DNA from: a phage
DNA length: 64,000 nt
Direction: 5' to 3' (one strand)
Sequence record: PZ445134.1
In this document: one piece after another, positions 5,959 through 37,037 of the stretch
Numbering within the stretch: the first letter of the stretch is position 1
Layout of the letters: every line of letters starts with the position of its first letter
Made by a program: the position numbers and the translations under genes
The notes under the pieces: model-generated
Database searches by the model: none
Told to the model about the DNA's origin: nothing
The model's input: the letters and a program-made list of their open reading frames with translations, nothing else

Positions 5959-6181
5959 AGATACCTCTGATGTGTAGTTCGCCAAAATAAATGCGGTCTC
6001 CTTCTTCAAGATAGTTAGCATCTACCGGTGGGATTTCAATAACAACTTCGTCGCATTCTAACCAGCCGTAGTGTGCATCACCAGGATGTTTTACCAATTT
6101 AGCGCAATAAACTGATTTACACTTATGATGACCACGAAGATTAGCAATTTTGGATTCTGATACGTCAAATGGATGAATCAT
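5894..6181 (-). CDS. hypothetical protein (95 aa)
   Basis: ORF track; overlaps refined denB start by ~65 nt. Confidence 0.4.
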   Translation of the reverse strand: MIHPFDVSESKIANLRGHHKCKSVYCAKLVKHPGDAHYGWLECDEVVIEIPPVDANYLEEGDRIYFGELHIRGIYGKDELGTVETEESSDIYPVE

Positions 6182-6222
6182 AATTACCCCTAAAGAAAAA
6201 AAGGGACCGAAGTCCCCAATTA

Positions 6223-7158
6223 TTATTCTGCAAATAATTCAGTAACGTCTGAAATTACTTCATAACGACAAGTACGCATCTTAGCATCACCATAGTCAAC
6301 CGGGATGGATACAACATCACGTGGATGAACTTTAACCTTAACAACTTTATCTGAGCTTGAACCAAAGTGGCGAATATAAGATTTAGCACAAACGTGGAGA
6401 CCGCGAGAACAGGTTTGAGTATCATCGTCGTTAACTCGAGTACGAGGCATTGAAACAACTTTACCTGGGGAGTTATCAAATGTGCCGCTATAGCAATCTA
6501 AATAGTCTTTACGAACTACTTTCCACGCATAGAAATGCCCATCTTCAGTGATTTCAATATCGTTTGCAACCAAGAAGTCGAATAAACGTTGTACAGCTTT
6601 TTCACTTGGGTTTTCTAACAGGTTTTCAAGGAACGGCAGATAGAATTTAAAGTCTTCGCCTTTTTCCATGGAATCAATAATACGATTAACCAGTCCTGAA
6701 CGAATTTCTATACCTTGATAAAATAAACTACCACCTTCAATAGTAACATTACCATCAACAAACTTACTAATAGCTTTCTTGATGTTAATAAGTTCGACAG
6801 CTTTACTAAGGTTTCCTGCGACCAGATTAGCTTTAATTTCTTCAAAATTTGCATGACTTGATGGGGTCGCATTGTATGCTACGCGTCCTTCAATAATTGA
6901 AATAAATTTAGATGACGCGTTCCATACGATTTCTGGACGATGTCCGCCGATAATAGGTTCATCATTTTCTGGAACCTGTTCTTCGTCTTCAAATTCAGCG
7001 GCTTTCTCTTCAGCTTTAAAATTCTTAACAATCTTACGAAGAGTGTCAGTGGAAATATTGAAGTAATCAGCAATTTCCTGACGAGTCCATTGGCCTGATT
7101 TAACCAGATCGTAAGCTTCTAACTGTTCTTCTTGAGACAAGCATTTAATATTGTACAT
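6223..7158 (-). CDS. rIIB: rIIB rapid-lysis/exclusion protein
   Basis: 311 aa (T4 rIIB 312); directly downstream of rIIA. Confidence 0.85.
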   Translation of the reverse strand: MYNIKCLSQEEQLEAYDLVKSGQWTRQEIADYFNISTDTLRKIVKNFKAEEKAAEFEDEEQVPENDEPIIGGHRPEIVWNASSKFISIIEGRVAYNATPSSHANFEEIKANLVAGNLSKAVELINIKKAISKFVDGNVTIEGGSLFYQGIEIRSGLVNRIIDSMEKGEDFKFYLPFLENLLENPSEKAVQRLFDFLVANDIEITEDGHFYAWKVVRKDYLDCYSGTFDNSPGKVVSMPRTRVNDDDTQTCSRGLHVCAKSYIRHFGSSSDKVVKVKVHPRDVVSIPVDYGDAKMRTCRYEVISDVTELFAE

Positions 7159-9686: not shown

Positions 9687-10787
9687 TTACGCTGTGAAGA
9701 TTTTATCCCACATCGCAACAACTGCATCTCGGTTATACTTCTTCCATACTGCTTCAGCACGTTTAACTCGAGCTTCGTATGTGTCAGTGAATTCTAATAC
9801 AGCTTTTGTGTAAAGCGCAACTACTTCTTTCTTAGGAGTAGAGGAATCAATTTCTACACGCACAGTATCTGGGTCGTATTCGAATGTCGCATGAGGATAA
9901 TCCTTAAAAACTAACTGGATTACAGGGACACCTTTAGAAATGGCTTCAATAGAACTATTCTCTACTGTACCTGTGTCAGGACACGTATTAATAAGTGCTT
10001 TAGCTGTTTTAAGACGTTCCATGATTTCACTGTGTGGAGCATCAATAATAACAGGATATTTAGCTGGTGGTGCCCATTTACTAGGACAGTATCCTGCACC
10101 GTTTTCGCCTAGTGCTTTAATCGCTTCAAGAGCAACATCGGCGCGACGCATTTTAGTGTCATAACGTTGTGCACTAATAATCAGATCAGTCGCCGGAAGA
10201 ACTTCAGGTTTCTCATTCAAACAAATAACCGGATAATCTTCGGCTTCAAACAACGGATTTGCTCGCCAATAATCATAATCAATTTTGTCAGTCAGAGCTG
10301 AAGTCATATGGCAATATTTACGTTCAAATTCACGGAAGGCTTTAGTAGGAGCATAACTCTTACCACCATTCTTATGAATTTGAATAGTCTGGTCCCAAAT
10401 TTGAACAATGCCACGAGATACCGGTTCAAATGGTGTTGCCATAAAATTCTTATGAACTTTAGAGAGACCTGCGTCTTTAATTGCCTGAACGGTTAGTTTA
10501 GTCGGTTCCATAGTAACAACAAAATCGTATTCATGGATGCCGGCTAGTTCAACAATCTTACGAGCCATAGTATAACTCATACCTAGACTGAATTTAGTCA
10601 GATGACCAACAGGATGGTGTGTAACTTTCCAGTCACCAAACGTGTCATTATCAAAGCCGATATAATCAATATCAGCACCAATAGAAACTAAATATTTCAA
10701 CACATTTAAATGTACTGCTTCAAGGCCACCTTGTACACGGTCAGGATTAAATGGGACTGCACGAGATGGGATAAACATAACTTTCAT
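9687..10787 (-). CDS. GT-B fold glycosyltransferase (candidate DNA hmC glycosyltransferase)
   Basis: 366 aa; C-terminal ...TVENSSIEAISKGVPVI... resembles the E-x7-E / LEAMA-G-PVV region of GT4-type GT-B enzymes; no counterpart at this locus in T4. Confidence 0.6.
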   Translation of the reverse strand: MKVMFIPSRAVPFNPDRVQGGLEAVHLNVLKYLVSIGADIDYIGFDNDTFGDWKVTHHPVGHLTKFSLGMSYTMARKIVELAGIHEYDFVVTMEPTKLTVQAIKDAGLSKVHKNFMATPFEPVSRGIVQIWDQTIQIHKNGGKSYAPTKAFREFERKYCHMTSALTDKIDYDYWRANPLFEAEDYPVICLNEKPEVLPATDLIISAQRYDTKMRRADVALEAIKALGENGAGYCPSKWAPPAKYPVIIDAPHSEIMERLKTAKALINTCPDTGTVENSSIEAISKGVPVIQLVFKDYPHATFEYDPDTVRVEIDSSTPKKEVVALYTKAVLEFTDTYEARVKRAEAVWKKYNRDAVVAMWDKIFTA

Positions 10788-28882: not shown

Positions 28883-29245
28883 TTAAAAGAATTTAAATTT
28901 TTTCTTGGTCCGTTCATTAAAAGCTTGTTGTACTTGCATTGTAACACATTTTTCAACATGTGGTGCAAGTTCTGCTTTTCTGTCCTGGTCAAGAACTGCA
29001 AAGTCCATTACGATTTTACCATCAACCCAGTCTAGTTTTGTAATATAGACTATATGATGAGAACCATCTTCAAGTGTAATCAGAATCTCTTGAATGACAT
29101 TTTCCATTGCTGAACGGATAATTTTAAGAGATTCATTAAACACTCGTTCTTTGCGAATGTCTTCCCCTTCCGAAGAAGGGGATTCATCAACGATTTCTAG
29201 ATTTAAATCATCGAGATTATTCATCGAAATCTTCCATTTCATCAA
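28883..29245 (-). CDS. hypothetical protein (120 aa), gene 40 position
   Basis: located between 41 and uvsX as T4 gene 40; not verified by sequence. Confidence 0.4.
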   Translation of the reverse strand: MMKWKISMNNLDDLNLEIVDESPSSEGEDIRKERVFNESLKIIRSAMENVIQEILITLEDGSHHIVYITKLDWVDGKIVMDFAVLDQDRKAELAPHVEKCVTMQVQQAFNERTKKKFKFF

Positions 29246-30389
29246 GGTCGTTTTCTATATCTGCTGCAGACGGAGCATCAGAAGTTTTAACCGGAACTTT
29301 AGTTGTTGCTTTGCAATTAATAAGGTCATTAACAGCATCATCAACTTCTTTAATAGAAGAGATAGCACCTAGTTTATATTTAGTTTCAATTGCATCTCGG
29401 AAAGGTTTGTGTTTAAACAACGGCCCCCAGAATTCTACACAATCAGTAGCTTTAGCACGCCATGATTTTTCTTCACGAATCATTTCGCCTGTTTCTTCGT
29501 CAAGGAATTCACGAGCATACCAACCAGCTTTAGGCTTAACTACAAAACCAATTTCAGTTGCCATTTCTAACAAGCCACTGAATGGGTCGATACCACCATC
29601 AAAATTAACAGTGATCGGGAAAGTAGATTTTTCTTTAACGGTGCGAGATTTTTCTGCTTTCAACGTGAAGTCATAACCGGTCAATTCTGTACCTTCTTTA
29701 ACCTGACGTTTAGAGATAAAAAATACCGTGTTGGCAGAATAAAGAATACCTGTACCACCACCCATAATCTCTTTAGGATACAATCCGCCAATTTCCATTG
29801 CTGTATGGTTAATTGCAACACATGGAATATCTTTAATAGTCAGATAAGGAGTCACAATGCGGAACAGAGATTTAAGTGCCTTAGCACGAGACATATCACC
29901 TACGACTTTCTCGTTCAATGCATCTTCAGTTTCTTTCTTAGATGCAGTATTACCGATTGAATCGATAAAGATAATAACTTTATCACCGCGTTCAATCGCG
30001 TCAAGCTGATTAGTCATATCAACTTTAAGTTGTTCGACAGATTGAATCGGAGTATGAACTACACGGTCTAAATCAACACCCATTGAACGAAAATAAGATT
30101 CTGAAGCACCAAATTCTGAATCATAGAACAAACAAATTGCATCTTTATATTTCTTCATATATGCTGCAACCATGGTCAGCCCAAACAACGTTTTAAAGTG
30201 TTTAGAAGGAGCAGCAAAAATAGTTAAGCCTGATTGCAACCCGGCATTCAGTGCACCACCTAATGCAATATTCAACATCGGAATACGAGTAGGGACTTCA
30301 TCACGATTATTAAACAGCTTAGACTTAGTCAAGTCTGCAGTCATTTTAGAAGTAGAAGCTTTAATCAGACGAGATTTTAAATCAGACAT
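29217..30389 (-). CDS. uvsX: UvsX recombinase (RecA-like)
   Basis: 390 aa (T4 391); synteny. Confidence 0.9.
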   Translation of the reverse strand: MSDLKSRLIKASTSKMTADLTKSKLFNNRDEVPTRIPMLNIALGGALNAGLQSGLTIFAAPSKHFKTLFGLTMVAAYMKKYKDAICLFYDSEFGASESYFRSMGVDLDRVVHTPIQSVEQLKVDMTNQLDAIERGDKVIIFIDSIGNTASKKETEDALNEKVVGDMSRAKALKSLFRIVTPYLTIKDIPCVAINHTAMEIGGLYPKEIMGGGTGILYSANTVFFISKRQVKEGTELTGYDFTLKAEKSRTVKEKSTFPITVNFDGGIDPFSGLLEMATEIGFVVKPKAGWYAREFLDEETGEMIREEKSWRAKATDCVEFWGPLFKHKPFRDAIETKYKLGAISSIKEVDDAVNDLINCKATTKVPVKTSDAPSAADIENDLDEMEDFDE

Positions 30390-30488
30390 TGTATTTTTCC
30401 ATAGGCATCATTATATTTTACTCATGTTTAAAAGATAAGACGATTATATACTAAGGGCTATACAGCATTTAAAACTTTAAACAGGCTC

Positions 30489-31037
30489 TTAACGAGCCCA
30501 TTTGATAATTTCTGTAATCAAATTATTACGTTCGCTTGCATTAAATCCTATAACTTTGTTAGCACCATCATGATTAAGTAATTGATACGTTTGGATTTTG
30601 TTATGAATTGCAAACTCTTCAAAATATGAAATGACTGTATTAAAACCGAATGAAGACAAAGTAATAAGGTCGTCTTCAAAACTTTCAGTCATTTCGTTAC
30701 GTGTTAAAATAATTGTGAACACATCATGGTTTTGGCAAAGACGAACATAATCCTGTTCATAAACGTCAAGAACCGAGTCCACATCTTGTCGAATACGTCC
30801 ATAAACCCAGTTACTAATATATCCACGGTCTAACAGATAAATCTTAGTAGGGTCTAAATAATTCAACATCGTTTCGAAACAGCCAACTTCATTTCGAGAT
30901 TTAACATCGAAACGTCCATCAACTGTTCGTTTAGGGAAATCAATCTTTACATATCTTTCACTAATTTCCATTATGTCATTAATGAAAGTTGTTTTACCAG
31001 CATTATCCGGGCCATCTACTAAAATAATTTTAGCCAT
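30489..31037 (-). CDS. P-loop nucleotide kinase-like protein (TMPK/dNK-like)
   Basis: 182 aa; Walker A GPDNAGKTT; LLDRGY resembles the DR(Y/H) motif of thymidylate/deoxynucleoside kinases. Confidence 0.55.
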   Translation of the reverse strand: MAKIILVDGPDNAGKTTFINDIMEISERYVKIDFPKRTVDGRFDVKSRNEVGCFETMLNYLDPTKIYLLDRGYISNWVYGRIRQDVDSVLDVYEQDYVRLCQNHDVFTIILTRNEMTESFEDDLITLSSFGFNTVISYFEEFAIHNKIQTYQLLNHDGANKVIGFNASERNNLITEIIKWAR

Positions 31038-31038
31038 T

Positions 31039-31938
31039 TTATTCCTCGATTACGACATCTTCATATTTAGGTATATTATACGGTGAAGAAATTAAAGCAT
31101 TAAAGTAGATGAACTCACCAAGACCTGGATGGAATACTTCTTCAGGATTTTCGAAATATTGAATCTTCGGTCTTCCTTTAAGAATTTGATAGTACTCAGT
31201 TTTAGTTGGTTTAAAAATTCGAATCAGCGCTTCTTCAGGATACTTATTTCTGTCGAAGCTATTATTTGGATCGGTTATATAAAGCGGTTGACCTAATTGA
31301 ATTGCACATTCAACCACTTGTTCAAAACGATAACACGGGTCACTAATTCGAAATGGATGAAAAATACCATCTAGATGAATAGGAGCCAAATCACCTACAA
31401 GACGCTGCATGATGGAAGGACGTATAACTTTCTGGGTTACGATAATCTTATTACCATCTGCACCAGCGTTAACCAGCACTTCTTTTTGACGTTCATTCAA
31501 CACAGTAGTTTGAAGTGAACGATTAACCGACAACATGTCGGTTTTTAAGAATTCGTCAATGTAAAAACGTGGTTTATTAGGGTCTGCAGTGATATTGAAA
31601 TTGAATTCTACATCAAAAGCGCCGTCATATCCAGTGATATCTGTGATTAGAAAATCACAATCATAATAAGAAATTAATGAATCAACCACAAATTCATTTT
31701 CAGACCAGAAATATTTACGAGTGTTATACGCGTTATCTTTATACCATAATGGAACAAACTTAAATTCTGGGAAAAGACGTTCGCATTCTTTAATATCAGA
31801 TGCATTACGTGGATATGTAATCACATCACCCGGATTAGCACGGTGCAAATGAAGTTGGAAGTTGCCATCCTTAAGGATAGCATACTGTCCAGTTTCATAA
31901 GACCGCATACTCAAGATAGGTACGCGGAAAATAGCCAT
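31039..31938 (-). CDS. hypothetical protein (299 aa) at the locus where T4 has beta-glucosyltransferase
   Basis: ORF track; tight spacing with flanking kinase and gene 42; no recognisable motif. Confidence 0.5.
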   Translation of the reverse strand: MAIFRVPILSMRSYETGQYAILKDGNFQLHLHRANPGDVITYPRNASDIKECERLFPEFKFVPLWYKDNAYNTRKYFWSENEFVVDSLISYYDCDFLITDITGYDGAFDVEFNFNITADPNKPRFYIDEFLKTDMLSVNRSLQTTVLNERQKEVLVNAGADGNKIIVTQKVIRPSIMQRLVGDLAPIHLDGIFHPFRISDPCYRFEQVVECAIQLGQPLYITDPNNSFDRNKYPEEALIRIFKPTKTEYYQILKGRPKIQYFENPEEVFHPGLGEFIYFNALISSPYNIPKYEDVVIEE

Positions 31939-32654
31939 TAGTCAAGGAATCCTTTAACATAATCAAAATCACGTTCAAACACATGGGCACTTACCATGGT
32001 ATGAGTATAATCACCAACTTCTACACCACATTCGTTAGCTATATAATGAAGTAATTTTCCTTGGAGATAAAAATCCAACTGCATAACAACAGCACAGTTC
32101 TGAGAACGCATATGACAGTGGGTATAAAGCTTACCATCACGAATATAATAAGTCACTGAGTCAGTACATGGATATTCAAGTGTTTCGTCTGAATCAAGCA
32201 AAGCCTGATCAGAACTTTCTAGAATTTGGAACACAACTCTTCGAGAGTTAGGTTTTTCTTTAAGTTCTTTTAGAAGAGTTGGTAACTGGGCCGCAATTCG
32301 TGGACCGTAGAAAGTGTTGAAGTTTGCAGGCAAAGCATCTGATTTAGGTTTAGAAATAAATTTAGCGACGTTAGGATATGCCTTAAATGCTTCTTCTGCA
32401 TCAGTACCACCAGAAATCATAAATTTCCAGAAATCTTCAGCATATTCATAAGAGATGCGATTAATACGTGGGTCGGTCATTTTGAATGATGAAGGGGTAT
32501 CAACAACTACTGTCATAGACCCAATTTCATTACAACGTCCAATACGAGAATCAGTAACGAATTCCGGGTTTTCTAAAATTTCACGATTGACAGCTTTAAA
32601 TGCGGATTGAAAATCTGCGGCTTTAATATATTTCATTGTGTTATGTTTTCCCAT
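31938..32654 (-). CDS. 42: dCMP hydroxymethylase-like (thymidylate synthase fold)
   Basis: 238 aa; YPCTDSV...HCHMRSQN resembles the T4 gp42 catalytic Cys region (FMCTNTV...MRSND); synteny. Confidence 0.7.
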   Translation of the reverse strand: MGKHNTMKYIKAADFQSAFKAVNREILENPEFVTDSRIGRCNEIGSMTVVVDTPSSFKMTDPRINRISYEYAEDFWKFMISGGTDAEEAFKAYPNVAKFISKPKSDALPANFNTFYGPRIAAQLPTLLKELKEKPNSRRVVFQILESSDQALLDSDETLEYPCTDSVTYYIRDGKLYTHCHMRSQNCAVVMQLDFYLQGKLLHYIANECGVEVGDYTHTMVSAHVFERDFDYVKGFLD

Positions 32655-32787: not shown

Positions 32788-32937
32788 CTAGTTGAACAGG
32801 TTCTCTTTAATCACTTTAGCCGCTTTAGTTTCAAACAGGCCCATAAGGGCCTTTTTAAGAATTTGTTCGTTGTTGTTAATTTTAATAGTCAAAATCTCTT
32901 CGTTAAGTTGGTGGTTAAAAGTTTTTCTAGAAATCAT
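32788..32937 (-). CDS. small ORF (~49 aa) translationally coupled to the upstream Cys-rich protein
   Basis: ATG overlaps upstream stop (GAATGATT); below ORF-track cutoff. Confidence 0.3.
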   Translation of the reverse strand: MISRKTFNHQLNEEILTIKINNNEQILKKALMGLFETKAAKVIKENLFN

Positions 32938-34094
32938 TCTGGGTACCTCAAAGCGTCATCAGAGTTAGTTATATCAATAATAGATATAGAGTTTTCCGAT
33001 AACCCATTTTTAGATAACTGACGTTTATAATATCTTTCACAATATGTACACGTCGTCCCACAGATTTCATTAGCACAATCGAAATCTGGATGTTTGAACC
33101 ACCTTTTTTCTAAAAAGCCATCTAACAAAGAGGTTTCAATATTTACCGTATGTGAAAACTCAGTCTCATTTTCAAGAGTGAAAATGGTCTCTAAAGGCTT
33201 CCACAATTCCAACAAATTACCTTCAAATTTTTCAGAAGCATAAGCTTCAAGAACTTTCAAAATGTAGTCTGTGCTACCTGTACGTCCTGAAACTTTGAAT
33301 TGAGTGATACCAATATCATTATAAAGTTTCAAATCTTGAGGACGAACAAAACGAGTTCTCAACCAGTTAAATGGATCTGTATCACGAGCTTTAATACAGT
33401 GCTGCATTGGATATCCATTTAAGGATTTGGCATCATCTACTGTAACATCAGTGCTATGGAAAATATAGCAAGAGTCACGATAACTACAATGTGTTGTATA
33501 CCCTTTACCAGCATTAGAACAGAACTCATTTACAAGAACTTCAAATATTATATTGTTCTTATTACAAAACTCTGCTGCACGCTTCAGGAAAGAAACTGAA
33601 CGGTTCTTATGAATTCCACAGCAGACCTTTTTGATATTATATTGGTCATGCAAGTATTTGATTTGAGTTACAGCATCGACATGTAGAATTGTTGAAACTT
33701 CAATCTCAATGTCTTTATTGACTTCACGAACAATTTCCATAACAACAGGGTTAGCGATAGTAATACGCCAAACGCCTATTGACCAAAGATACTGAACATA
33801 ATCCTGAATAGCTTTCTTCTTCCACTCAACTAGTTCTCTTTTTGAACCAGGATTTATCGTGTTGAGTGTACAGTTAAAGCAAATACCTAATTCGTTACAA
33901 CGTTTAACGTAATCTTCTAACATCTTTTTGTCAACGTCAGGAAGCCTAAAATCAGGTCTGGCTGCTACAAAAGCCATTTCTCTTGTAGAGCCGTATACTT
34001 CGTTTATCAAGCTATTAGGATAAGTTTTATTGAGCTCTACGATTTTATCAAGAAGAGCTAAATCAAAATTCGTTCCGATTTTAAAGGTATTCAT
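32934..34094 (-). CDS. Cys-rich protein of unknown function (386 aa)
   Basis: multiple Cys clusters including C-terminal C-x4-C-x3-C-x2-C (DCANEICGTTCTYC); first gene of the block inserted between 42 and 43. Confidence 0.5.
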   Translation of the reverse strand: MNTFKIGTNFDLALLDKIVELNKTYPNSLINEVYGSTREMAFVAARPDFRLPDVDKKMLEDYVKRCNELGICFNCTLNTINPGSKRELVEWKKKAIQDYVQYLWSIGVWRITIANPVVMEIVREVNKDIEIEVSTILHVDAVTQIKYLHDQYNIKKVCCGIHKNRSVSFLKRAAEFCNKNNIIFEVLVNEFCSNAGKGYTTHCSYRDSCYIFHSTDVTVDDAKSLNGYPMQHCIKARDTDPFNWLRTRFVRPQDLKLYNDIGITQFKVSGRTGSTDYILKVLEAYASEKFEGNLLELWKPLETIFTLENETEFSHTVNIETSLLDGFLEKRWFKHPDFDCANEICGTTCTYCERYYKRQLSKNGLSENSISIIDITNSDDALRYPE

Positions 34095-34148: not shown

Positions 34149-34550
34149 TTATAGATTCGGTTTATATGATTTAAATGTTTCGAATTCGCCTTTATTCATA
34201 AGAGCTTTGAATTCGTCAGGACGCATAGCTTTGTCGTCGATAATCCAATCATATACTGGTTTATGTGTTAGCAAATTATGGTACTTCAATCCAATGTTTG
34301 CCAAGTTCTGAATCAGACTTGGGAGAATGTCAATTGCTATACGACCAGGACCGACTGACTTCATACCACGAGCAGTGTAAAGCGTTATGGTATGCCCTGC
34401 ATCATACAGGGCATTAATGGCAGACACCATTTCGACGTCTGGTTTGAAGTTCACGTAATCACGATTGTTATTCCACTCTGTTATACAATCATCGACATCA
34501 AAACAAAGATTAAGCATGTTTTCTACACGGTGCATTAGATTCGTTCCCAT
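34149..34550 (-). CDS. HAD-superfamily phosphatase (sugar-phosphate phosphatase-like)
   Basis: 133 aa; motif I FDVDDCIT, motif II TLYTARG, motif IV YDWIIDDK. Confidence 0.6.
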   Translation of the reverse strand: MGTNLMHRVENMLNLCFDVDDCITEWNNNRDYVNFKPDVEMVSAINALYDAGHTITLYTARGMKSVGPGRIAIDILPSLIQNLANIGLKYHNLLTHKPVYDWIIDDKAMRPDEFKALMNKGEFETFKSYKPNL

Positions 34551-36220
34551 TGATGAGTGATATCGCCACCGATTGGACGATAGGAAACACCAGTTTCTTT
34601 ATCAGTTAGTACCCATTTACCAGGATTTTTTGTAATCAGAGTAGCCGTTACAGGTTCTGCTACGTCATAACTAATAGAGCCGTCCTGAAGTACACGGCCC
34701 ATGTTACGTAATTGCTTAGTCAGAAGTTCCATACCTTTATAATATGCGGCTACCGCTTTAAGTGGATTATTCTTGAAATAACCACCTAATGCAATCCAGA
34801 TAATTGCCACTGCCAAATGATGATACTCGTTAAACGAACTCATCTTTCCATATTTGTAAACTAATGGATTGATGTTAATAGTCACATTACAAGTTGTTTC
34901 ATCAATAGTAAACTGTCCCCAGGTCGGATTAGCGTTGAATTCATCATACCCTGAAACAGCATAAAGCACTTTAGCTTCGTCATACAATTTTGGTCCGTAA
35001 ATCTTGGTTTCGCCAAAATATCCACGAGGGTCGATAAACTTGACTTCGCCGTTATCAGTAATCATAGTATTACTGAAGTTCGGGTCACCATGAATAACAG
35101 AGTACTGTCCCTGAGAACGGTTATGATAACGAATAAGGTGTTCTAAAGCTTGTTTCAACATTGGCTTCAGACGTCCGATCTTAGTGTAGTTCACATGTGT
35201 GATTTTACCAAATGAATCAATCAATGGTTGAATACTTTCACAACGATCAATAACTTTCGTATAGAATTCTTTAGTGAAATCACGACGAACAGTTTCAGGA
35301 CTTACAAAATAAGTGTCTGTGCTGAATTTCAGTGCGTCTAAAATTGCATCAACAATTTGTGGACGAGCAAGACTCGATTTGGATTTAATATATTCAAATG
35401 CCGGCTTACCTTTAATGCGTTCCATTTCAAAGTTATTTTCATTAACAGAAACTAACTGAGGAACTGAATCTGATTTCACTTTAAGATACCATGAAATCTC
35501 ATCTTTCTGAAGAGCTCGGCCCTGTTCGGTTAATGCGAATTTAGTTACAGTTTCTTCACCAATTTCAACGGCATTAAAACTACGATTAAGTTCACGAACT
35601 TCATGAGCTTTTTCAAGTTTAGGCATATCACCTAAATCAATTAGATTCATAAGCTCTGATTTATTGAATGCGCTGCCGTAAAGGAATTCTACGAAATCAC
35701 GTCCTTTGCAGTATTCATGAATTTCCTCATCAGTAGAACCCATATAGAATTCCCAGTCTTTGAACTGATAAATTCCTACAACATTACCACCTGTTGAACC
35801 TACGTTAGTGATATTTTCACCGTCGAAATTATATCGACATTCGTCGCCCTTAACATAGATTGCGTTAACATTCCAAGACCACGAACCAAAATCAGGAATA
35901 ATATCGCACCAGTTAACAATTACATTATGGCCGTCTAAATCTTTGTGTAATTTAGCAAGAGCATAAGCAGAACCGTACGCTTCATCAACTGTACGAATAG
36001 TCACATTGAACCCTTCTTGCTCACAATAAGCTCGAACAGTTTCAGCAAATTTTGAATGAACTACTACAATAATTTCATCTGCGCCAAGGTCAGAATAAAT
36101 TGTATACAAATTGCTCAGAATAGTGTCTTGTTTATAGTTAACAAGCACCTTAGGAATATGATGCGTTATTGGATACAAACGAGTTGCCAGTCCAGCACCA
36201 AGAATAACAGCTTTTTTCAT
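34535..36220 (-). CDS. bifunctional sugar-1-phosphate nucleotidyltransferase (RmlA-like) / sugar kinase (APH-like)
   Basis: 561 aa; N-terminus KKAVILGAGLATRLYPIT (G-x-G-x-R-L); C-terminal HGDPNFSNTMI ... FIDPRG kinase catalytic/DxG-like motifs. Confidence 0.7.
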   Translation of the reverse strand: MKKAVILGAGLATRLYPITHHIPKVLVNYKQDTILSNLYTIYSDLGADEIIVVVHSKFAETVRAYCEQEGFNVTIRTVDEAYGSAYALAKLHKDLDGHNVIVNWCDIIPDFGSWSWNVNAIYVKGDECRYNFDGENITNVGSTGGNVVGIYQFKDWEFYMGSTDEEIHEYCKGRDFVEFLYGSAFNKSELMNLIDLGDMPKLEKAHEVRELNRSFNAVEIGEETVTKFALTEQGRALQKDEISWYLKVKSDSVPQLVSVNENNFEMERIKGKPAFEYIKSKSSLARPQIVDAILDALKFSTDTYFVSPETVRRDFTKEFYTKVIDRCESIQPLIDSFGKITHVNYTKIGRLKPMLKQALEHLIRYHNRSQGQYSVIHGDPNFSNTMITDNGEVKFIDPRGYFGETKIYGPKLYDEAKVLYAVSGYDEFNANPTWGQFTIDETTCNVTININPLVYKYGKMSSFNEYHHLAVAIIWIALGGYFKNNPLKAVAAYYKGMELLTKQLRNMGRVLQDGSISYDVAEPVTATLITKNPGKWVLTDKETGVSYRPIGGDITHQWERI

Positions 36221-36401: not shown

Positions 36402-37037
36402 TCATTGTTCGCCTCGTAACATGGCACCTAGTGCACCGCCAGGGTGGAACTTAAGGAAGTCATTAGAGGTAAATCCACGTTCAGACGAAAGGTTGATAGC
36501 AAACGTATCGATAAGCGCTAACAACAATGTAGTGGACATAGTCGGAGCTAGAGAATTCTCATCAACCTCTACTGCGATGCCTGTACAGAACGTATAATCA
36601 AAAAGAGCTTCGTATTCTTGTGGAATGTCTGGGTTACAATGCAACAGAATCTGTTTGACGTTCGGACGAATCATTTTAAGATGCTTAGCCACGCCTATCA
36701 TTTCTTCAGTTTTACCGGAACGACTAATATGAATCAACACATCATTAGGCGCAATGAATCCTGCATCACCGTGAGAATAATGCCCAGTGTTCAAGTACAT
36801 ACTCGGGATACCGAGTGAAGCAAATGTCTCAGAAGCTTTAGTTGCAATATTAGCATTCTTACCAACACCTGTAATAATTACTCTGCTTTCATAATTACTA
36901 AGTCCCGGGCGTCGAAGAGTTTCTAGAATAGCATTATAACGAGCAGGGTTTTGACTAATTACTTTGGCCATAGCGGCCAAAGAAGAAGCTTGTTTTATGA
37001 TTGCGTCAATAGCGATAGTAATAGGAGTAGTTTTCAT
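36402..37037 (-). CDS. SIS-domain sugar-phosphate isomerase (KpsF/GutQ-like arabinose-5-phosphate isomerase type)
   Basis: 211 aa; GVGKNANIA and SRSGKTEE SIS motifs; C-terminal HPGGALG as in KdsD/GutQ. Confidence 0.7.
   Translation of the reverse strand: MKTTPITIAIDAIIKQASSLAAMAKVISQNPARYNAILETLRRPGLSNYESRVIITGVGKNANIATKASETFASLGIPSMYLNTGHYSHGDAGFIAPNDVLIHISRSGKTEEMIGVAKHLKMIRPNVKQILLHCNPDIPQEYEALFDYTFCTGIAVEVDENSLAPTMSTTLLLALIDTFAINLSSERGFTSNDFLKFHPGGALGAMLRGEQ

Follow-up and report, generated by a model that had tools for sequence, protein, structure and literature searches.

RB69 and the Acinetobacter phage DLP3 replace the cytosine of their DNA with mono- and poly-arabinosyl-5-hydroxycytosine, as has been shown chemically (Lee et al., NAR 2026, PMC13326640). 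The DNA of RB69-type phages contains mono- and di-arabinosyl-5-hydroxycytosine (ara-5hoC), and the cluster responsible extends from RB69 gp45 to gp55; its counterpart in phage HY126 is named Afh. Its ThyA homologue, RB69 gp48, is a flavin-associated synthase of 5-hydroxy-deoxycytidine monophosphate (5-hydroxy-dCMP or 5hodCMP) and not a hydroxymethylase (PMC13326640). Lee et al. assigned RB69p045 as a 'nucleotide kinase' and RB69p046:47 as 'arabinosyltransferase 1', with RL38J1 gp214/gp215 and DLP3 gp78/gp79 as their equivalents; both assignments are predictions (PMC13326640). Here we describe the orthologues of these two genes in a 64,000-nucleotide stretch of phage DNA (sequence record PZ445134.1; hereafter the window). 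Two minus-strand open reading frames (ORFs) exactly occupy positions 30489-31938, one encoding a 182-aa P-loop kinase (KIN) and the other a 299-aa protein (GT1).

ara-5hoC, which was described only recently as a hypermodification of phage DNA, blocks restriction enzymes, and papers citing Mahler et al. credit it with blocking the Brig1 glycosylase and type I CRISPR-Cas as well. Phages of this group are frequent among coliphage isolates. Of all the steps in the pathway, those of the 182-aa and 299-aa proteins are characterised least. The pathway would be complete, and modified DNA could be made enzymatically, once it is known which of the two commits 5-hydroxycytosine (5hoC) to glycosylation and whether DNA or the nucleotide is the acceptor.

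We propose that the kinase is the module's own deoxynucleoside-monophosphate kinase for 5-hydroxylated cytidylate, that the 299-aa protein transfers the first arabinose to the 5-hydroxyl, and that a 366-aa glycosyltransferase encoded elsewhere in the window adds the second sugar. We consider this proposal probable, but well short of secure. Our data concern the folds, the conserved catalytic-type residues, the gene linkage and the coupling; both substrates and the order of the steps are what we infer. The functional assignments of both proteins have already been published for the RB69 orthologues, and our finding repeats a known annotation. RB69, a closely related Mosigvirus, has the same genes in the same place, and we reached the same fold-level assignments independently. 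In the RB69 reference, however, two ORFs make up the transferase, a split that Lee et al. ascribe to a sequencing error; the window contains one intact 299-aa ORF.

Linkage of the synthase, GT1 and kinase genes

The ThyA homologue (238 aa; 31938-32654, minus strand) lies upstream of GT1. It matches PDB entries 9iqc/9ir2, from phage HY126, at an E-value of 6e-162. At the positions equivalent to 143/146/169/177 of Escherichia coli ThyA it has E143, C146, N169 and D177 (ECND; L143E, D169N and N177D), which is the signature of a 5hodCMP synthase; the E. coli reference shows the expected residues at all four positions. The ThyA homologues of the hydroxymethyluracil (hmU) phages ViI and M6 have DCDN at these sites. 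In public records the synthase adjacent to GT1 is variously annotated as thymidylate synthase, dCMP hydroxymethylase or deoxycytidylate 5-hydroxymethyltransferase. The original prediction likewise took this gene, its 'gene 42', for a hydroxymethylase and framed the substrates in terms of hydroxymethyl-dCMP and hydroxymethylcytosine DNA. Both points have to be revised, as the homologue belongs to the 5-hydroxy-dCMP synthase class and the pathway is one of 5-hydroxycytosine and arabinose (PMC13326640). Given this class and the ara-5hoC in RB69-type DNA, the relevant substrates should be 5-hydroxy-dCMP (or its arabinoside), UDP-arabinofuranose and 5hoC-DNA.

The genes for UDP-arabinose supply are also present (arabinose-5-phosphate isomerase, kinase/nucleotidyltransferase and HAD), in the order found in RB69-type genomes. 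On the minus strand the order is DNA polymerase, isomerase, 561-aa nucleotidyltransferase/kinase, HAD, U32 family, ThyA homologue, 299-aa protein, 182-aa protein and uvsX. Judged by sequence, the two genes at 30489-31938 are the distal end of the Mosigvirus ara-5hoC DNA-hypermodification cluster, and ara-5hoC in this phage is predicted from its genes. The best-matching T4-type coliphage genomes share 97.7-99.3% identity with the 7.1 kb around the interval, and 151 records cover at least 80% of this region. The relative that we inspected, 308Ecol101PP, is classified as Mosigvirus (RB69 group).

The original prediction that two genes fill the interval stands, given the ORFs, the motifs it quoted, the low probability of such frames arising by chance and the deep conserved families to which the proteins belong. 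At the local base composition, the chance of a frame staying open is 1e-6 for 182 codons and 2e-10 for 299 codons. GT1 (31039-31938, minus strand) is the orthologue of RB69p046:47, DLP3 gp79 and Thanatos TH1_063, and KIN (30489-31037, minus strand) that of RB69p045, DLP3 gp78 and probably Thanatos TH1_064. At the TAATG junction (31936-31940) the synthase stop codon and the GT1 start codon share one base. At the next junction, GAGGAATAAAATG (31035-31048), the GT1 stop codon and the KIN start codon are separated by one base, and a GAGG Shine-Dalgarno sequence lies within the end of GT1. These junctions fit translational coupling of synthase, GT1 and kinase, as far as can be read from the DNA. 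A scan for sigma-70 promoters and terminators gave counts not above those of shuffled sequence. Synonymous against non-synonymous changes to a 98%-identical relative (3 vs 3 in the kinase gene, 10 vs 2 in GT1) were too few to be informative.

We collected 58 IMG/VR loci with a GT1 profile and annotated them with local HMMs; the sample was drawn through GT1 or kinase homology and is hence biased. In about 35 of the 58 viral loci the synthase, GT1 and kinase genes are directly adjacent; these loci include non-T4 backbones and contigs that lack any further T4-like neighbour. The kinase gene is instead located after the HAD gene in ten T4-like loci (L004-L006, L010-L014, L019, L024, L025). Even beside GT1 relatives of 24-28% identity, a weak P-loop kinase match directly abuts. 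Wherever a locus has both a kinase-family match and a ThyA homologue (53 loci, 48 with the kinase at E<1e-5 and five weaker), the ThyA homologue has the ECND 5-hydroxylase signature. For ViI and M6, the regions that we fetched gave no kinase-profile match.

Folds and conserved residues of the two proteins

The 182-aa protein contains VDGPDNAGKTT at residues 7-17 and LLDRGY at 68-73. A query with it returned 27 word-indexed relatives, and 37 columns are invariant among 24 aligned sequences. With a profile, we found 297 relatives at E <= 1e-3 among 1.84 billion protein representatives, which argues that the family is small and specialised. Structure prediction gave the protein the fold of thymidylate kinases (TMPKs), which are its best structural matches. 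The P-loop G9-PDNAGK15-T16 and D70-R71 are invariant in the 24 sequences and correspond to GxxxxGK[ST] and DR[YH], with the aromatic residue of the second motif one position along (DRGY). The other invariant residues include F34-P-K36, R42, R48, F54-E55, S75-N76, Y79, R113 and F120-x-D-D-L-I125. Thus, the description of this protein as TMPK-like is borne out by fold, P-loop and DR motif. In nucleoside-monophosphate kinases the Arg of the DR motif binds the acceptor phosphate, and its retention here argues for a nucleoside-monophosphate acceptor. The case for a sugar kinase is weak, since the 561-aa protein already has an arabinose-5-phosphate kinase domain.

Compared with thymidylate kinases (vaccinia 2v54, Thermus thermophilus 5x7j and human DTYMK), the 182-aa protein falls below the family sequence cut-offs, has Asn12 in place of the P-loop Arg, has an acidic, Arg-poor lid with the invariant F-x-D-D-L-I, and has a beta-hairpin and one helix where TMPKs have two helices. 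Moreover, its gene is linked to a cytosine hydroxylase gene. By its sequence, then, the kinase appears to have neither the P-loop Arg of type I TMPKs nor the Arg-rich lid of type II. When the family was compared with human TMPK by full-length hhalign, only residues 3-40 aligned. Residue-level statements about the substrate beyond the P-loop and FP motif come from reading the helix register and not from a tool alignment. In this register, the invariant Leu58 would sit where human TMPK has the Arg that binds the O4 of thymine.

The kinase resembles the 5-hydroxymethyldeoxyuridine (5-hmdU) DNA kinases, M6 gp54 and ViI gp67, in being a small phage P-loop kinase beside a ThyA homologue in a base-hypermodification cluster, and both groups have relatives fused to domains of the helix-hairpin-helix (HhH) fold. 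Unlike M6 gp54, which has been shown experimentally to be a DNA-base kinase, the kinase family keeps the DR motif. We rejected membership of the 5-HMUDK family, as the profile similarity to M6 gp54 and ViI gp67 is weak or limited to the P-loop.

A query with the 299-aa protein returned 138 relatives, down to about 36% identity, and 32 columns are invariant in an alignment of 53 sequences. The protein had no match in Pfam, NCBIfam or a PDB profile search, and hhalign found no match between it and the 366-aa glycosyltransferase of the window. PHROGs places it in a family of unknown function. The gene occurs in 349 phage records, and in all 60 rows that we inspected its sole label is 'hypothetical protein'. 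One distant relative has a 'faint' match to Glyco_transf_4.

Structure prediction was the only informative approach for this protein. AlphaFold2, run with the 53-sequence alignment, gave a model with a predicted local distance difference test score (pLDDT) of 95.2 and a predicted TM-score (pTM) of 0.89. The model matches the GT-B fold over 267 aligned residues, with two Rossmann-like domains and a cleft between them. Invariant or nearly invariant residues are S10-M-R-S13 and K23-D-G-N26 in the N-terminal half, and F193-x-P-F-R197, T222-D-P-N225, K246, H270-P-G272 and an acidic residue at 275 in the donor-binding half. The window protein has E267-x7-E275; position 267 is Lys or Thr in most relatives, and position 275 is Glu or Asp in all 53. 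Thus, the model predicts that the 299-aa protein functions like a GT-B glycosyltransferase, while membership of GT4 is not established at the level of sequence. This agrees with the suggestion of a second, highly divergent transferase: the fold is recovered by structure prediction and no sequence family is matched.

The GT4-type retaining GT-B enzymes (sucrose-phosphate synthase 6kih, BshA 6n1x, PimA 2gej and WaaG) are larger, with 340-400 aa against 299, and 7-12% identical to the window protein; in contrast to them, the GT1 family has no Pfam glycosyltransferase match and does not keep the first Glu of E-x7-E throughout. The T4 beta- and alpha-glucosyltransferases share the GT-B fold, and GT1 occupies the T4 beta-gt position, as originally noted and in agreement with Thomas et al. 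2018. T4 beta-glucosyltransferase (GT63) is outside the top 60 fold matches of the model. We infer that GT1 shares with the T4 enzymes a general role, the sugar-coating of a 5-substituted cytosine. Neither protein falls in an unrelated, well-characterised family, which leaves the proposed link to DNA-modification metabolism in place. The median isoelectric point of the GT1 family is 5.2; as UvsX and the polymerase are also acidic, this value gives no hint of whether the protein binds DNA.

Proposed pathway and competing explanations

In our model, the ThyA homologue would hydroxylate dCMP to 5-hydroxy-dCMP, as shown by others for this class. The TMPK-fold kinase, dedicated to 5hodCMP, would make the diphosphate 5hodCDP, and the host nucleoside-diphosphate kinase would convert this to the triphosphate used by the phage polymerase. 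UDP-arabinofuranose would be supplied by the products of the isomerase, kinase/uridylyltransferase and phosphatase genes upstream. GT1 would then put the first, base-proximal arabinose from UDP-arabinofuranose onto the cytosine 5-hydroxyl, and the 366-aa glycosyltransferase (9687-10787, minus strand) would add the second. The gene for this second, GT4-like arabinosyltransferase lies between rIIA and gene 39 and is the orthologue of RB69 ORF003c (gp3). Its product matches PDB 9iqz/9ir0 at an E-value of 3e-251; 9iqz is described in the fold library as 'phage HY126 glycosyltransferase'. According to Lee et al., mono-arabinosylated Thanatos has only a glycosyltransferase of the GT1 type (PMC13326640). 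In Thanatos-1 a gene for a 378-aa hypothetical protein, TH1_065 (5962-7098 of locus L060), follows TH1_064; its identity, as a U32 protein or a second glycosyltransferase, bears on the claim of a single arabinosyltransferase.

Several observations weigh against this model. The main difficulties are redundancy and a negative assay. In E. coli, the T4 gp1-type kinase RB69 gp159, which phosphorylates 5hodCMP, is enough for 5hoC to be incorporated (PMC13326640); in T4-like phages the TMPK-like kinase would thus seem redundant. DLP3 gp79, a GT1 orthologue at 45.9% identity, did not arabinosylate 5hoC-DNA with UDP-Araf or UDP-Arap, in the only assay among the RB69, DLP3 and RL38J1 equivalents (PMC13326640). 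The literature that we covered, which did not extend to He et al. (2026, Nat Chem Biol) or Mahler et al. (2025, Cell Host Microbe), gave no published activity for either protein, and papers that cite these two studies added no detail on the genes. The kinase scores below the cut-offs of PF02223 (12.3 vs 27 bits) and TIGR00041 (16.8 vs 83.25 bits). The invariant Asn12 occupies the P-loop position of the type I TMPK Arg, an equivalence given by hhalign, and R113 is the sole Arg of the lid (residues 112-128, by our own reading of the equivalence), which carries the acidic FxDDLI. Pfam glycosyltransferase models are matched by none of the 53 GT1 family members at E <= 1, and the GT4 E-x7-E motif varies at its first Glu across the family. 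Lastly, Thanatos TH1_063 was reported to make UDP-xylose (Brandt et al., PMC12838424).

On this alternative reading, the 299-aa protein would not be a transferase but a UDP-pentose pyrophosphorylase, which supplies the sugar in activated form. Purified TH1_063, a GT1 orthologue (47.5% identity, same position next to the ThyA homologue), formed UDP-xylose from UTP and xylose-1-phosphate and transferred no sugar to plasmid DNA, dCMP, dCTP or cytosine (PMC12838424). All of these acceptors are without a 5-hydroxyl. We think it very improbable that the 299-aa protein is such an enzyme. For the kinase, one alternative is that it serves bulk nucleotide supply as an ordinary dTMP kinase, and that its link to the cluster is positional only. 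TMPKs are indeed the best structural matches, and the PHROG and several GenBank records label the protein thymidylate kinase. However, it is far under the TMPK cut-offs, its profile family is small, it co-occurs with ThyA homologues of the 5hodCMP-synthase type while the two hmU-phage regions that we examined have no such kinase, and Leu58 would take the place of the Arg that binds thymine O4. We regard an ordinary dTMP kinase as improbable. Slighter still is the chance that the kinase acts like the 5-HMUDKs and phosphorylates a hydroxyl of the modified base, or of its sugar, within DNA. Distant relatives are fused to an HhH-GPD domain in clusters with a 5hodCMP-synthase-type ThyA homologue and a glycosyltransferase, HhH glycosylase-like transferases are found alongside 5-HMUDKs or fused to them, and hhalign aligned the kinase with M6 gp54 at a probability of 81% over 83 columns. 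Conversely, the DR motif is absent in M6 gp54, the similarity to ViI gp67 is confined to the P-loop (probability 12%), and the bridging oxygen of 5hoC is kept in the glycoside (PMC13326640), so that a phosphate leaving group has no obvious role.

A further possibility concerns the order of the steps. If glycosylation were pre-replicative, GT1 would arabinosylate 5hodCMP, the TMPK-like kinase would serve the bulky ara-5hodCMP, and the polymerase would incorporate a glycosylated dCTP analogue. The order synthase, GT1, kinase, with its translational coupling, mirrors such a pathway, and the kinase retains its phosphate-binding DR motif. Unglycosylated 5-hydroxycytosine in DNA is a substrate of the host glycosylases Nth and Nei, and this attack would favour early protection. 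To our knowledge, however, the phage DNA glycosylations characterised so far all take place on polymerised DNA, and we know of no earlier case in which it is installed before replication. As the gp1-type kinase handles 5hodCMP, conservation of another kinase calls for a separate function. The GT1 orthologue showed no activity in vitro on 5hoC-DNA, and the data of Lee et al. do not separate the mononucleotide from DNA as acceptor of the first arabinose (PMC13326640). An assembly line in which the mononucleotide is the acceptor for GT1 and the glycosylated monophosphate the substrate of the kinase would account both for the presence of two kinases and for the negative assay of the GT1 orthologue on 5hoC-DNA. 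Nevertheless, later arabinosylations act on DNA (PMC13326640), and the kinase gene has moved from GT1 to a position after the HAD gene in several T4-like genera. We consider this order of steps unlikely.

Neighbouring genes and distant relatives

The gene upstream of the ThyA homologue encodes a 386-aa U32-family protein (32934-34094, minus strand; Pfam U32 E 6e-11, with a weak UbiU match), the orthologue of RB69p050. It has the conserved core cysteines and a C-terminal C-x4-C-x3-C-x2-C. The U32 family includes RlhA, which is needed for 5-hydroxycytidine in 23S rRNA, TrhP, which is associated with 5-hydroxyuridine in tRNA, and UbiU/UbiV, which carry out prephenate-dependent, O2-independent hydroxylation. 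By analogy, the 386-aa protein may be an O2-independent pyrimidine C5 hydroxylase. In that case it would stand in for the O2/flavin-dependent ThyA-like synthase under anaerobic conditions. RB69p050 is labelled 'sugar or heterocycle reductase' by Lee et al. (PMC13326640). On three contigs kinase, GT1 and U32 genes are contiguous with no ThyA homologue within 8 kb (U32 genes at L048 8954-10051, L051 5783-6865 and L054 8885-9973); one of these contigs carries a Pol III alpha gene. Elsewhere, a gene for a flavodoxin-like protein or NADPH-dependent FMN reductase stands beside a ThyA homologue of the 5hodCMP-synthase type (L031 6240-6746, L062 9068-9613), and the neighbouring genes differ from those of the T4-like cluster. 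This arrangement fits a phage-supplied source of reduced flavin for the hydroxylase. Between the U32 gene and the ThyA homologue of the window lies a 49-aa ORF (32788-32937, minus strand), which has a 4-nt overlap with the U32 gene end and is annotated as a hypothetical protein in 308Ecol101PP.

The sugar-supply genes, whose functions we take from the literature, follow further upstream on the minus strand. The HAD phosphatase (133 aa; 34149-34550) resembles AfhF and RB69 gp51 and matches PHROG 1238 and TIGR01689 (E 4e-13). The bifunctional sugar-1-phosphate nucleotidyltransferase and kinase (561 aa; 34535-36220) resembles AfhE and RB69 gp52:53; it matches Pfam NTP_transferase and NCBIfam models and, weakly, kinase families. 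The arabinose-5-phosphate isomerase (36402-37037) resembles RB69 gp55 and matches KpsF/GutQ (E 2e-32) and KdsD (E 1e-30). Downstream of KIN, uvsX lies at 29217-30389 (minus strand). Between the kinase stop codon and uvsX, at about 30440-30475 (minus strand), AAATGCTGTA is followed after 12 nt by TATAAT. By eye, this resembles a T4 MotA-dependent middle promoter; the MotA box and -10-like site are placed to drive uvsX, and a sigma-70 scan does not test MotA sites.

M6 gp54 and ViI gp67, the experimentally shown DNA kinases, carry the annotation 'terminase small subunit'. Among the distant relatives of the kinase, P0179, P0180, P0185, P0187 and P0189 (loci L062-L068) have a C-terminal domain of about 150 aa. 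Pfam identifies this domain as HhH-GPD in P0179 and P0180, and its PG(L/C)GKYAxDS motif recalls MBD4. The genes for these kinase-HhH-GPD fusions lie just downstream of ECND-type ThyA homologues, where upstream sequence exists, and just upstream of a distant GT1 relative or a GT4-like gene.

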